Source: an uncultured cyanobacterium
GTDB taxonomy: Bacteria; Cyanobacteriota; Cyanobacteriia; CAKZMO01
NCBI GenBank assembly: GCA_963719515.1
Contig: CAVRCJ010000003.1
Coordinates: forward strand, 32,001 to 96,000
Reading direction: 5' to 3'
DNA length: 64,000 bases
This document shows, piece after piece, positions 18,001 to 21,000 of this stretch. The position numbers were made by a program. Position 1 is the first letter of the stretch. Every line of letters begins with the position of its first letter.

Positions 18001-21000
18001 TCGCCATGGAGTCTGCCGCCGACAAAGAGTTTGTCCGTATGCGGCGGGGCGATAAGTTTTTAGAAACGGTGGTGGCCCTTTCGCCGCTCATTGGCCTTTT
18101 GGGAACCGTGACGGGACTGATCCGGACCTTCAACAACCTCGACATCGGCGGTCAGGGGTCGGGAGAGAGCGGTGAACTGGCGGCGGCGGGAATTGGTGAA
18201 GCGCTGATCACGACGGCGGCAGGGATGTTTGTAGCTATCTTAGCGCTGGTATTTTTCCGCGTCTTTGTGACGCTGCAGTCGCGGCAGATGGACTACTTTT
18301 CTGAGGTGGGTAGTGAGCTAGAGCTAATTTATCGTCAGGAGTGGTACGAAAAGGACAGCGTGAGTCATGAGGACGTGAGTTACGAGGACAGGCGGCTTCC
18401 TTCTGAAGCCCCCACCTCAATTTAGCTACTAGACAGGAAGCCCCGCGCTCTACCCGTCAGGGTGAGCGTCGGGATGAGAGTCGCGGTCGTCGATGGGGCT
18501 CAATGCCCCGGAGACGGCCAAACTTCGGATGTACTCCCTAAGGACATCGTTGATAGTTCTTTCGGTCATCTCACAATACTTGTCAAGATGCTGCTTTTCT
18601 CTGTCAGCGGCTCTAATAGTTATTTGCTGCATGTCGTTCTGATGTCAATATGCTATCATTATTGCATGAAAGTCACTTATCAGTACAAGTTGCGTCCAGC
18701 GGCTGAGCAAACGGTTACCATGACCCGATGGCTAGACATGCTTCGGGCACAGTACAACTGGTTGCTGGCTGAGCGATTCGACTGGTGGGAGATGAACCGC
18801 TGTTCGGTCAACGCCTGCCCACTCACCTGTAGCCTTGCGCCACTCAAAGATAATCCTAATTACTACAGCCAGAAGGCTAGCCTAGTACCTCTCAAGCGAG
18901 AGCGACCCTGGTACAAAGATTTGCACTCACAAGCGCTTCAGGAGGTGACGAAGCAGGTAAAGCAGACGTTCGAGCGTTTCATCAAAGGTGATAAAAACGG
19001 TAAGCGTAGCGGCAAGCCTCGGTTCAAAGGCGCGGGGCGCTACAGGACGTTCACGTTCCCGCAGATGAAACCTGACTGCATCGATGGAAGTCGTATTACC
19101 CTGCCTAAGATTGGCCAGGTGAAGCTAATCCTTCATCGCCCGATACCTGATGGGTTTACTGTCAAAACCGCCAAGGTGACTCGCAAAGCAGATGGTTGGT
19201 ATGTGAGCCTGTTACTGGAAAACAATGCCGTTCCGATGCTTACTCCGGATGTCGATAGGGCTAAGTCTGTCGGTGTTGACGTTGGGCTGAAGGATTTCTT
19301 GGTTACCAGTGACGGTGAGAGCGTTCCTATCCCTCAGTTCTTTCGACGCTCAGAGCGGCAGCTATCCAAGCTGCAGCGGCAGCTATCGAGACAGAAGAAG
19401 GGCTCTAACCGCTGGCGTAAGCAGGTGAATCGTATCGCCAAACTACACCTAAAGATATCGCGTCAGCGTCGTGATTTCTTTTCTAAGGTGTGGGATTGGC
19501 TGTTTTCAAAGTACGATGTTGTCGCTCATGAAAAGCTCAACATCAAAGGACTTGCTCGAACCAGACTGGTAAAGTCAATCGCTGATGCCGCATGGGGTAC
19601 ATTCTTGGAGATAGGCTCTTTCAAAGCCGCGAAAGCTGGAAAGATGACCATCGCTGAGAACCCACGCGGAACCAGCATTGATTGCTCGGGTTGTGGTGAG
19701 CGGGTACCAAAGACGCTGGCCGATCGGGTCCATAGTTGCCCGTCATGCGGCTTAACGATCTGTCGCGACCACAACGCGGCTATCAACCTATTGAATAGGG
19801 CTGTGGGACATCAAGCCCTTAATCTCTCAGGAAATGTCTCAGCAGTAGCTGGGAGTCACTGAGGAAGCCCGCGCTGTATGCGTAGCATCAGCGTCGGGAG
19901 GATGTCACGCGCTAACCCAGATCTAAGCGGAACCAGTCCTATGCCACTCCACAAGCGTAAAGAGCCCGCCATCCCGACGGTAAATCTCATTCCGATGCTC
20001 AACGTTATGCTGGGCATTCTGGCATTTTTTGTGTTGATTACCATGTCGCTGACCCTGCCCACGGGCTTAGAGGTCCAGCTTCCCGCCCGCTCAGACTCGC
20101 CGTCCCCCGCCGCTCCTGAAGACGGCGAGCCTCCTCTAATCGTCACGCTAGAAGCAGAGGACCGGATTTTGATTAAAGAGACCCGGCTCTCTCAAGAGGA
20201 GGCTAGGGCGCAGGTGCAGCAGTACCTGGCTGGCAGTGAAGAGCGACTGGTCTACATCAAGGCAGAACCAGAGGCGGCCTACTTAGATGTAGTTCAGTTC
20301 GTGCTGCAGATGAAGGAAGCAGGAGGCGATCGCGTTTCCCTGGCTATTGAGGAGTAAGCGCAGGGGATTGGTCGGGGCGCAGCCTGCCGTGCCCCCCAGC
20401 AGCAGAAAGTTCTTAAAGGGTAAATGTTATGGGCTTCAGGCAAAATAGACCCCCAGAGGTTCCCGAGGTAAACCTGGTGCCCATGATGGACGTGCTGATG
20501 TCTGTCCTGACATTCTTCATCATCATCTCGATGAATCTAACCAGCGAGGATATTCGCTCAGTTGAGCTGCCGACAGTCAGCGGTAGAGGCGAAGAAGATA
20601 CCGGCGCTCCTTTTGTAGTCGGTCTAGATGCCGACGGTCGAATTTTACGGGTTGATGAAGTTGTCAGTGAAGCAGAACTTAGCGAGAGCTTGGGGGCGTA
20701 TTTGGCGGAAAATCCGGAAGGCTACGTTCGCCTCAAGGCTGACCGTGACCTGGACTACGCGGATATTTCGCAGCTGTTGCTCACGATTCGCGACATCGGG
20801 GGGGGCCGCGTGTCGCTAGCGGTGGAATAGGACTTTACAAACGAGCCGCTAGGTAAACTGCTGGTCAACCCAGGGCAGGTTGAAAATTTCTCGATACAGC
20901 GGATTGGCGACCCACAGCTCTCTCCTCGCGGTAGGTGACCAAGCCCAGAGAGCAGCAGCTCGCTCTGCTCAACGCTGCCGTCGGCGGCAACCGTGCCGCA

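Follow-up and report, generated by a model that had tools for sequence, protein, structure and literature searches.

An arc-tnpB element of the IS605 family in a cyanobacterial genome, with a ribbon-helix-helix gene whose tail is left-end hairpin DNA

Results

An arc-tnpB element between exbB and exbD

We analysed a 64,000-nucleotide window from the genome of an uncultured cyanobacterium, in which an insertion at positions 18421–19908 lies between exbB (17706–18425) and exbD, as the initial annotation had noted for one copy of a TnpB element. The element body (18426–19908, plus strand) carries no tnpA, and its layout comprises left-end hairpins, a small minus-strand gene, arc, a 33-bp putative promoter region, plus-strand tnpB, and a right-end hairpin. 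Immediately 5′ of the left end lies the plus-strand target site TTTAG (18421–18425), presumed to be the TAM of TnpB, which includes the native TAG stop codon of exbB; exbB of relatives has a TAG stop at the position equal to that in the TTTAG site. All 46 left ends had TTAG, which was preceded by T in 40 of them, and conservation started abruptly there. The right boundary was abrupt after ...GGATGTCAC, with random bases and no sequence preference past the right end. As in IS200/IS605 elements, insertion is 3′ of a fixed short sequence, here TTAG, without target duplication; the element would enter sites 3′ of (T)TTAG in single-stranded form. The empty site was unreadable at base resolution, as same-genus genomes were 81–84% identical in exbB and divergent at the junction.

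Subterminal imperfect palindromes of identical architecture were found at both ends, with no terminal inverted repeats, again as in IS200/IS605. On the left, an outer imperfect hairpin of the type recognized by TnpA spans 18442–18473 on the plus strand (left-end DNA fold −25.8 kcal/mol, z −4.12) and is kept in all relatives; on the right, a hairpin of like architecture spans 19868–19898 on the plus strand (DNA fold −12.7 kcal/mol, z −3.33), and the right end stops at 19908.

The tnpB gene (18666–19862, plus strand) encodes a predicted RNA-guided nuclease of 398 aa with the RuvC D-E-D residues in place and a zinc ribbon. It matched the Pfam families OrfB_IS605 (4.8e-23), Cas12f1-like_TNB, and HTH_OrfB_IS605 (the latter two at 1.2e-16 and 2.3e-09). 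The product matched ISDra2 TnpB (8bf8/8exa) at 2.9e-43, and its alignment to 9yyg spanned the DxG, E, and RDxN motifs. In IS200/IS605 elements an omega-RNA overlaps the 3′ part of tnpB and the right end; a search for one in the arc-tnpB element gave no Rfam match at E ≤ 1.

Whole-genome blastn recovered 15 full copies of 1488 bp including the query, the 14 others being 98.6–99.5% identical to it, in agreement with the initial annotation, together with partial copies. Two of the full copies, on contigs C9 and C10, have identical flanks, and the number of independent insertions is therefore at most 14. Full-length tnpB (398 aa) was found in 13 of the 15. The Y1 HUH transposase that IS200/IS605 elements encode is absent from the 1488 bp; since tnpA is present in three siblings described below, we assign the element to the family as a non-autonomous member. 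It is a multi-copy non-autonomous IS605-family transposon with a small gene for a putative Arc-type repressor at the position of the sibling's transposase.

Arc and the arc-tnpB intergenic region

The arc gene (18450–18632, minus strand), divergent from tnpB as annotated initially, encodes a 60-aa ribbon-helix-helix (RHH) protein consisting of a core (residues 1–41) and a tail (residues 42–60) predicted to be disordered. The ORF was whole in all 15 full copies and in two partial copies at contig ends (12 identical, 5 with one substitution); an earlier count of 12 whole ORFs among 15, with three out of register, reflected how the copies had been cut out. The AlphaFold2 model had a strand-like N-terminus and helices at residues 10–23 and 27–41, with a pLDDT of about 90 in the core and 48–68 in the tail. 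The top Foldseek matches of this model were all RHH proteins, at weak E-values (0.17–1.3), and a sequence search of the PDB with the Arc profile gave no RHH match. A homodimer model scored 0.42 versus 0.00 for the best of three controls; its contacts agreed at 98% between runs, and its pLDDT was ≥ 75. In calibration, 20 of 30 solved homodimers and 1 of 23 single chains came up to the mark. This pass may come from the model's memory of solved RHH dimers. Judged by these models, Arc is a real RHH protein that is predicted to form a dimer.

The Pfam matches of Arc were below the curated cut-offs (DUF6290 0.0036, RHH_1 0.022), and its copies in this genome, about 99% alike, are too similar for constraint to be tested among them, both of which would suit a chance open frame rather than a gene. 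Such a frame is extremely improbable, given that the profile search found 698 clusters in the family, that homologues 52–65% identical occupy the equivalent position in other genomes, with dN of 0.19–0.47 and saturated dS, and that the product has an RHH fold and a dimer model that passes.

Arc adjoins tnpB inside the IS across a 33-bp intergenic region (18633–18665), which is a candidate to contain the Arc operator. At 18651–18659, 6 nt ahead of the tnpB ATG, it has an extended −10 box, TGCTATCAT; scanning the 33-bp spacer for generic sigma-70 promoters gave no site. The same spacer architecture, 33–39 bp with TGCTACAAT or TGCTATCAT, was found in 12 of the 15 arc-tnpB loci compared. Inverted repeats in the spacer were weak in the copy at 18421–19908, and any Arc operator in it is putative. 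A search of RNA runs returned only three metatranscriptomes, at 5–10% of sampled words; these held just contig fragments of relatives 90–95% similar, mainly tnpB and the right-end hairpin, and none was informative for arc.

An Arc-like ORF was first noted in a preprint by Zedaveinyte et al. (2023; 10.1101/2023.11.20.567912), and the available text of a later preprint by Moon, Zedaveinyte, Wiegand, and Sternberg (2026; 10.64898/2026.09.24.754181) reports that Arc binds and represses IS605 promoters, including those of elements with only arc and tnpB. The caveat attached to the initial annotation, that Arc in IS605 elements was already in print, was therefore justified. As in the elements of the 2026 preprint text, the gene described here is a small RHH gene inside an IS, transcribed away from tnpB, with a short spacer between them that bears the promoter; the likeness is one of fold and gene placement. 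By analogy, Arc would act as an RHH dimer that most likely represses the tnpB/arc promoter.

A different function, with Arc mainly a protein inhibitor or antitoxin of TnpB rather than a promoter repressor, is suggested by the RHH-TnpB toxin-antitoxin pairs that Altae-Tran et al. (2023; PMC10691335) proposed from co-folding. In the parts of that article consulted, the clade with these RHH/MazE-TnpB pairs is archaeal and immobile, its TnpB has a catalytic site that is rearranged, and the RHH gene precedes tnpB in a shared operon, whereas the element described here is mobile and multi-copy, its genes are divergent, and its TnpB has a canonical D-E-D. Together with the direct experiments in the 2026 preprint text showing IS605 Arc proteins binding promoters, these differences make an antitoxin role quite unlikely.

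tnpA-tnpB siblings and MITEs in the same genome

Three tnpA-tnpB siblings are present in the genome, on contigs C1, C10, and C5. Compared with the tnpA sibling, the arc form was 88% identical over nt 1–89, unrelated over nt 90–246, and 98.3% identical over nt 247–1488, which bears out the earlier statement that the siblings share its left end and tnpB. Within tnpB, the first 35 nt (nt 247–281) were 80% identical and the remainder (nt 282–1488) 98.8% identical. The last 42 nt were identical, so that the two forms have the same right end, and the left-end hairpin of the sibling is nearly the same as that of the arc form. The arc gene fills exactly the sibling's tnpA slot, with the left-end hairpins on one side and the promoter and start of tnpB on the other. 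The genome also holds 53 paired copies of MITEs of 396–398 bp that share the element's ends, as first annotated, with a median pairwise identity of 99.2%; one extra pair of ends lies 1399 bp apart.

IS200/IS605 includes non-autonomous relatives: the IS1341-type tnpB-only elements and the palindrome-associated transposable elements (PATEs/MITEs) have no transposase, have ends in common with an autonomous relative, and exceed it in copy number. The arc-tnpB element and the MITEs resemble these in having no transposase of their own, in sharing ends, and in outnumbering the autonomous form (15 and 53 copies versus 3); the arc element differs from them in carrying a regulator gene in the transposase slot. 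Having no transposase, the arc-tnpB element must, we infer, be moved in trans, presumably by the Y1 transposase of two or three of the tnpA-tnpB siblings, and the 53 MITEs would use the ends that they have in common with the arc form.

The shared protein tail is encoded by left-end hairpins

The last 20 residues of Arc and of the sibling TnpA agree at 15 positions, as had been reported. The initial annotation read this agreement as the trace of an in-frame swap, in which the catalytic core of TnpA was replaced by an RHH domain and the C-terminal tail was inherited as protein; the single frame of the matching tails and the position of arc in the tnpA slot accord with such an origin. It had also been cautioned that the shared tail may only reflect conserved left-end DNA, and the anatomy of the left end proved the caution right. 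DNA homology between the two genes begins at Arc codon 41/42, and the tail is encoded by two hairpins. The outer hairpin encodes Arc residues 53–60 (HPDAHPDG) and the arc stop codon (18450–18452). An inner hairpin (18485–18519, plus strand), recognized by DNA folding and covariation, encodes Arc residues 38–50 (LAVSGALSPIDDR), and its top, GGGGC-ATTGA-GCCCC, translates as G-A-L-S-P.

Across 18 elements, 82.4% of the cells of the inner hairpin were paired, versus 30–51% in slid controls, and 8 of its 14 pairs had changed on both sides, with a covariation score of 0.422 versus ≤ 0.128 in controls. Examples of codons that pair with each other across the stem are GGC..GCC, TCA..TGA, TCT..AGA, and GCT..AGC. 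No variation was seen in the upper stem and loop (GGGG/CCCC), and there may accordingly be some protein-level constraint on G-A-L-N-P; NP[IL]D motifs resembling the Arc tail were also seen in RHH-GIY-YIG fusion proteins. An inner stem was predicted at the equal position in most relatives, with unrelated sequences. An argument that MITEs lack the inner hairpin was dropped, since folding of a single MITE copy predicted a different stem at that position.

The behaviour of the tail in TnpA relatives also weighs against its inheritance as protein. The sibling TnpA is 159 aa long and has its Y1_Tnp domain (7.5e-41, with HVHLL and KRYIEQQ present) at residues 12–132, so that the tail lies beyond the domain, and most of the intact TnpA relatives (19 of 27) are 133–137 aa long and have no such tail; by sequence comparison, the tail of the sibling TnpA is an unusual run-on. 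The motif GGGGCATYGAACCCC is untranslated in one relative (L027), where it lies past the tnpA stop codon, and is read in another frame in two others (L022 and L023). Two of the three reading frames run through both left-end hairpins, so a shared frame would arise by chance about one time in two. A likeness between Arc helix 2 and the catalytic-tyrosine helix of TnpA, VL(K/R)xYI, amounts to five shared nucleotides and was treated as chance. The tail is left-end DNA and not a protein module: the tails match because both ORFs read into the conserved hairpins without an earlier stop. Both ORFs head outward to the left end and translate common cis-acting DNA, made up of the inner hairpin, which covaries, and the outer one of TnpA type, with the stop codon in the latter.

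Secondary structure at the ends of such elements has precedents. In the paradigm of IS608 and ISDra2, subterminal imperfect hairpins flank the element, insertion occurs 3′ of a fixed 4–5 nt site without duplication, and a Y1 HUH transposase acts. The element described here shares the subterminal hairpins and the fixed-site insertion, its sibling encodes a Y1 HUH transposase, and its TnpB is related to that of ISDra2. It differs in its target, (T)TTAG, in its second, inner left-end hairpin, and in the outward-reading ORF that overlaps both hairpins. IS200 likewise has nucleic-acid secondary structure at its transposase-proximal end; in the sections of Ellis et al. (2015; PMC4513863) consulted, however, the left-end structures lie in the tnpA 5′UTR and control translation, whereas the inner hairpin here lies at the 3′ end of an outward-reading gene.

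arc and tnpA beside related tnpB genes

To place the element in a wider context, we compared loci from other genomes. Among 15 such loci, mostly cyanobacterial, an Arc with the VSGALNPID tail adjoined tnpB in 13, with arc divergent from tnpB, and a tnpA core was found in none of the 15. Conversely, none of the external tnpA loci, 29 in all, had an arc core. In a phylogeny of 33 TnpBs, the arc/tnpA label needed five changes, at least four of them forced by well-supported branches, and none of 200 bootstrap trees allowed a single change. Since Arc with the same tail motif stands beside several TnpB clades elsewhere, it did not arise in this genome; on this comparison, the arc-tnpB architecture is older than the host genome.

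These results complete the case against the in-frame swap, which we consider unlikely: besides the hairpin-encoded tail, Arc with that tail occurs beside distant TnpBs in other genomes, and the left-end module is 80–88% identical to that of the sibling, compared with 98.8% for the remainder, a mosaic that suggests that the two forms recombined, crossing over near the beginning of tnpB. What stands of the original reading is that arc occupies the tnpA slot, that the element has no transposase, and that MITEs share its ends; the retained TnpA protein tail does not. Another route to a chimeric ORF would be an internal deletion in a three-gene arc-tnpA-tnpB element that fused the end of arc to that of tnpA, and the 2026 preprint text describes three-gene elements in which arc and tnpA overlap. 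We found no three-gene relative, either among the arc loci or among the external tnpA loci counted above, and the VSGALNPID motif is kept across arc-tnpB elements, which makes a deletion derivative very unlikely. ORFs of about 170 aa (L004, L005, L006, and L009) had been considered as RHH-TnpA fusions; L004, the one inspected, combined an RHH domain with an unrelated C-terminal domain and had no tnpB nearby.

On this reading, arc and tnpA are alternative cassettes for one slot, which extends from the left-end hairpins to the tnpB 5′ end. The two local forms differ by an exchanged left module, with the crossover about 35 nt into tnpB, and such exchange has occurred several times across cyanobacteria.

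Discussion

We consider it probable that the locus holds a non-autonomous arc-tnpB element whose Arc tail comes from left-end hairpins and whose arc gene takes part in cassette exchange with tnpA. Compared with the elements in the text of the 2026 preprint, whose test cases are clostridial, the element belongs to a cyanobacterial subfamily, its arc ORF traverses both left-end hairpins, and a near-isogenic tnpA sibling is present in the same genome. The terms "cyanobacteri", "hairpin", and "non-autonomous" do not occur in that text, the supplement of which may include cyanobacterial or tail-overlapping cases. Modestly new, in our view, are a covarying hairpin that lies within coding sequence and the repeated exchange of arc and tnpA cassettes.

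A bolder reading is possible, although as a whole we hold it only tentatively and think it rather doubtful. It takes arc and tnpA to be interchangeable in one fixed slot of a cyanobacterial IS605 subfamily, swapped repeatedly by recombination between the conserved left-end hairpins and the tnpB 5′ end, with the arc form a hyperparasite of the autonomous form. This self-restraining form would borrow TnpA and keep homing by TnpB, which, as summarized in the introduction of the 2026 preprint, is guided by omega-RNA. Arc may also repress the sibling's related promoter in trans, as both promoters share TATGCTAT, and the covarying inner hairpin within the coding tail would serve the left end as a functional element in cis, its sequence constraining the protein and not the reverse. 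If true, this could explain why the arc form outnumbers the autonomous form 15 to 3.

Our results remove an attractive but wrong origin story for the chimeric tail, which is instead a by-product of ORFs entering cis-acting end DNA, a trap for any outward-reading IS200/IS605 gene. They also show that, in a single TnpB subfamily, the choice between arc and tnpA has switched several times. The genome offers a natural near-isogenic pair, which has tnpB and the right end in common and carries arc in one form and tnpA in the other at the left, along with the MITEs; this pair could be used to study the effect of Arc on copy-number success and mobilization in trans.

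An IS605-family element with arc in the tnpA position

The arc element, a 1488-bp transposon at 18421–19908, lies between exbB (17706–18425) and exbD. It carries tnpB (18666–19862, + strand; 398 aa; Pfam OrfB_IS605 4.8e-23, Cas12f1-like_TNB 1.2e-16, HTH_OrfB_IS605 2.3e-09) and, divergent from it, arc (18450–18632, − strand), a ribbon-helix-helix (RHH) ORF of 60 aa with sub-threshold Pfam matches only (DUF6290 0.0036, RHH_1 0.022). TnpB matched the solved ISDra2 TnpB structures 8bf8/8exa at 2.9e-43, and in one alignment its catalytic motifs DxG, E, and RDxN aligned with those of the closely related top match, 9yyg. 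Since TAG ends exbB at the same codon in same-genus relatives, the insertion point is immediately downstream of the native exbB stop; the element parts exbB from exbD, with tnpB oriented the same way. The ORF finder started exbD (19878–20357) at the ATG at 19878, within the right end of the element, but comparison with relatives makes the ATG near 19941 the probable native start. A second exbD-like gene was observed downstream at 20429–20830.

Both ends form imperfect hairpins of the same architecture (left-end fold −25.8 kcal/mol, z −4.12; right-end fold −12.7 kcal/mol, z −3.33). TTAG was found immediately 5′ of the element at all 46 left ends with enough flank, preceded by T in 40 of them, and no base bias was seen 3′ of the right end. 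Imperfect end hairpins with a fixed 5′ target and an unbiased 3′ side are hallmarks of IS200/IS605 peel-and-paste elements.

A blastn search of the 5.28-Mb genome recovered the query and 14 further full-length copies 98.6–99.5% identical to it (15 in all), together with several partial copies and three tnpA-tnpB siblings aligning from element nt 247 only. Two full copies (C9:14565–16052 and C10:705518–707005) share identical 40-nt flanks on both sides, through duplication of a segment or else redundancy in the assembly. The arc ORF is whole in every full copy and also in two fragments at contig ends; 12 of these 17 ORFs are identical and 5 have one substitution. In turn, tnpB encodes 398 aa in 13 of the 15, being cut to 269 aa in one and lengthened to 414 aa in another. 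Pairing of short matches yielded 53 MITEs of 396–398 bp, with a median pairwise identity of 99.2%, and one further pair 1399 bp apart. Another 43 right-end-like matches in the genome have no partner (32–45 nt, element nt 1443–1488, 84–97% identical; C10:324665–325076 and C11:289940–290351 are among these places), which suggests further element families with the same hairpin. In one element copy (C13:118600–120700), an insert of ~124 bp within arc (~1590–1715 of that locus) is bounded by a 5-bp duplication, element nt 116–120 being present at either edge. The insert resembles a small MITE of another kind that has entered arc, and leaves a 107-aa open frame containing Arc residues 1–42 and 28–60.

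The siblings, divergent tnpA-tnpB elements, occupy three loci, on contigs C10, C1, and C5. Their TnpA has 159 aa, matches Y1_Tnp at 7.5e-41 over residues 12–132, and displays HVHLL and KRYIEQQ motifs; tnpB is broken into two ORFs in the C1 sibling, and the TnpA N-terminus is shorter in the C5 sibling. Compared with the C10 sibling, the arc element is 88% identical over nt 1–89 and 98.3% identical over nt 247–1488, the last 42 nt being identical. Between these segments, nt 90–246 have no counterpart in the sibling, which has there 474 bp with the tnpA core. The 21 mismatches over nt 247–1488 are unevenly spread, with 7 in nt 247–281 (80% identity) and 14 in nt 282–1488 (98.8%), indicating that the whole left module, comprising the left end and the first dozen tnpB codons, belongs to a lineage more distant than that of the remaining sequence. 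Such a pattern in the local arc/tnpA pair is the mark of recombination, with the crossover in the 5′ end of tnpB.

The shared tail is left-end hairpin DNA

The initial annotation described a multi-copy arc-tnpB element whose Arc has a tail in common with TnpA, and this description was confirmed, with 15 of the last 20 residues of Arc and sibling TnpA in agreement. It further proposed that Arc arose when an RHH domain replaced the TnpA catalytic core and the TnpA tail was kept. Only part of this proposal stands: arc does occupy the tnpA slot of a non-autonomous and highly successful element, which would be mobilized in trans, but the tail is not a kept part of the protein. It is instead encoded by hairpin DNA of the left end, into which arc and tnpA both run, as the same annotation had cautioned. 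The DNA homology between arc and tnpA starts at Arc codon 41/42, upstream of which TACAT alone is common. An inner hairpin predicted at 18485–18519 encodes Arc residues 38–50, and an outer hairpin predicted at 18442–18473 encodes residues 53–60 and contains the arc stop codon.

We compared 29 loci with TnpA relatives, taken from 401 same-class genomes, and 15 loci with Arc relatives, taken from other assemblies. Wherever this pattern was identified among the relatives, left ends follow one plan: ORF end, inner stem-loop, CTCTCATCCC, outer imperfect hairpin, GGGGCTTCC, ~12 nt, and AGCTAA(A). Inner stem sequences are unrelated among different relatives and are mostly placed after the tnpA stop codon; TnpA of intact relatives ends just past YIExQ at 133–137 aa in 19 of 27 cases and reaches 146–183 aa in the other 8. 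The segment GGGGCATYGAACCCC, read as G-A-L-N-P in Arc and local TnpA, is untranslated in one relative (L027) and lies in another frame in two (L022 and L023), ending their ORF.

The inner hairpin was further analyzed in an alignment of 18 sequences (13 arc-type and 5 tnpA-type) with a 14-pair helix. In this helix 82.4% of cells are paired, versus 30–51% with the partner slid by 1–3 columns, and in 8 pairs both partners have changed. Its covariation score of 0.422 compares with at most 0.128 in the slid controls and was reached by none of 500 shuffles. Compensatory changes cross codons (GGC/GCC, TCA/TGA with a stop, TCT/AGA, and GCT/AGC pairs), so the constraint on the lower inner stem acts at the nucleic-acid and not the protein level; no variation occurs in the upper stem or the loop, which are therefore uninformative on this point. 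Two of the three frames are open through both hairpins, the third meeting TGA in the inner loop, and a common frame of two run-on ORFs thus has about an even chance. AF2 confidence for the Arc tail is low (pLDDT of 68 in the penultimate ten-residue block and 48 in the final one). A different stem is predicted at the inner-hairpin position in one folded MITE copy, so the role of the inner structure may lie with the end itself rather than with gene expression.

Arc is an RHH protein

Modeling and profile searches identify Arc as a genuine RHH protein. Its AF2 model (14-row alignment; mean pLDDT 77.7) has an extended N-terminus and helices at residues 10–23 and 27–41. The Foldseek PDB matches listed are all RHH proteins (among them Arc repressor 1bdv/1par/1myk, CopA(SO), TacA1, ParG, PutA, AmrZ, NikR, and CopG), with target-normalized TM-scores mostly of 0.4–0.78 and E-values of just 0.17–1.3. 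A two-copy model exceeded the set mark (median score 0.42, versus 0.00 for the best of three controls), with at least 98% contact agreement between runs, partner pLDDT of at least 75, and antiparallel pairing of residues 3–8. In calibration, 20 of 30 solved homodimers attained this mark, as did 1 of 23 single chains; because RHH dimers have already been solved, the result indicates likeness and is not proof.

Between Arc and ten homologues (codons 2–37), dN is 0.19–0.47 and dS is saturated, the median dN/dS being 0.04 in the 5 of 55 pairs with computable dS. With the Arc-family profile, 698 clusters were retrieved at E ≤ 0.001, of which 45 also passed E ≤ 1e-10. Lengths are mostly 41–101 aa, and fusions to GIY-YIG nuclease domains occur among them. 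Three such fusions (P0049, P0146, and P0148; 140–148 aa) link the Arc-type RHH and GIY-YIG nuclease domains through a stretch with NPL(D/S)LPSV-like motifs recalling the Arc tail, and P0009 (146 aa) is a tandem double Arc with two RHH units in a single protein.

Accessory Arc proteins have precedents, as the initial annotation had cautioned. An Arc-like ORF was first reported, with recurrent gene gain and loss, in the available text of the preprint by Zedaveinyte et al. 2023 (10.1101/2023.11.20.567912). According to the accessible part of the preprint by Moon et al. 2026 (10.64898/2026.09.24.754181), IS605-family elements are repressed by Arc, which binds their native promoter; that work covers elements whose only genes are arc and tnpB and notes an arc/tnpA overlap, and the terms 'cyanobacteri', 'hairpin', and 'non-autonomous' are absent from its main text. 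Arc of the present element would likewise act as a repressor. Archaeal RHH/MazE-TnpB pairs, described as putative toxin-antitoxin systems in the available portion of Altae-Tran et al. 2023 (PMC10691335), differ from the arc element in every defining respect. A literature search for Arc-like proteins with TnpB in cyanobacteria yielded a single paper, on CAST and not related to the subject.

Repeated exchange of arc and tnpA

Among the 15 external Arc loci, tnpB is divergent and adjacent in 13 and the tnpA core was found in none, the tail alone matching TnpA (residues 122/124–159) in three; conversely, none of the 29 external tnpA loci contains the Arc core. A varying VSGALNPID follows the RHH core among the 12 closest Arc homologues (52–85% identical to the Arc studied here) and is missing from the two most distant rows, L007 and L008. 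In 12 of 15 arc-tnpB loci, the 33–39-bp spacer contains TGCTACAAT or TGCTATCAT a few nt 5′ of the tnpB start. Either sequence forms an extended −10 box, and tnpB mRNA may thus be nearly leaderless. One public MAG record labeled Rubricoccaceae, a non-cyanobacterial bin, encodes an identical Arc (100%) and a TnpB 98.5% identical to that of the element. In another public record (L056, arc at 2501–2695), the Arc homologue has a complete tail but no tnpB match lies within 2.5 kb upstream; this may be an arc standing alone or the remains of an element.

A TnpB tree was built from 33 of 48 loci (23 tnpA-linked and 10 arc-linked), the 15 left out being those in which no single tnpB match reached 300 aa free of stops. 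The arc-linked TnpBs are spread over five places, well-supported branches force at least four changes, and none of 200 bootstrap trees allows a single arc/tnpA change. The arc rows L007 and L049 are on long branches; without both, three well-separated arc groups are left. The TnpBs of the two local forms, arc-type and tnpA-type, are each other's sisters. The idea that the regulator arose in this lineage was not borne out, the event being neither local nor unique. Collectively, the wider distribution of Arc and the TnpB tree indicate that Arc did not originate in this genome and that the choice between arc and tnpA has been exchanged repeatedly.
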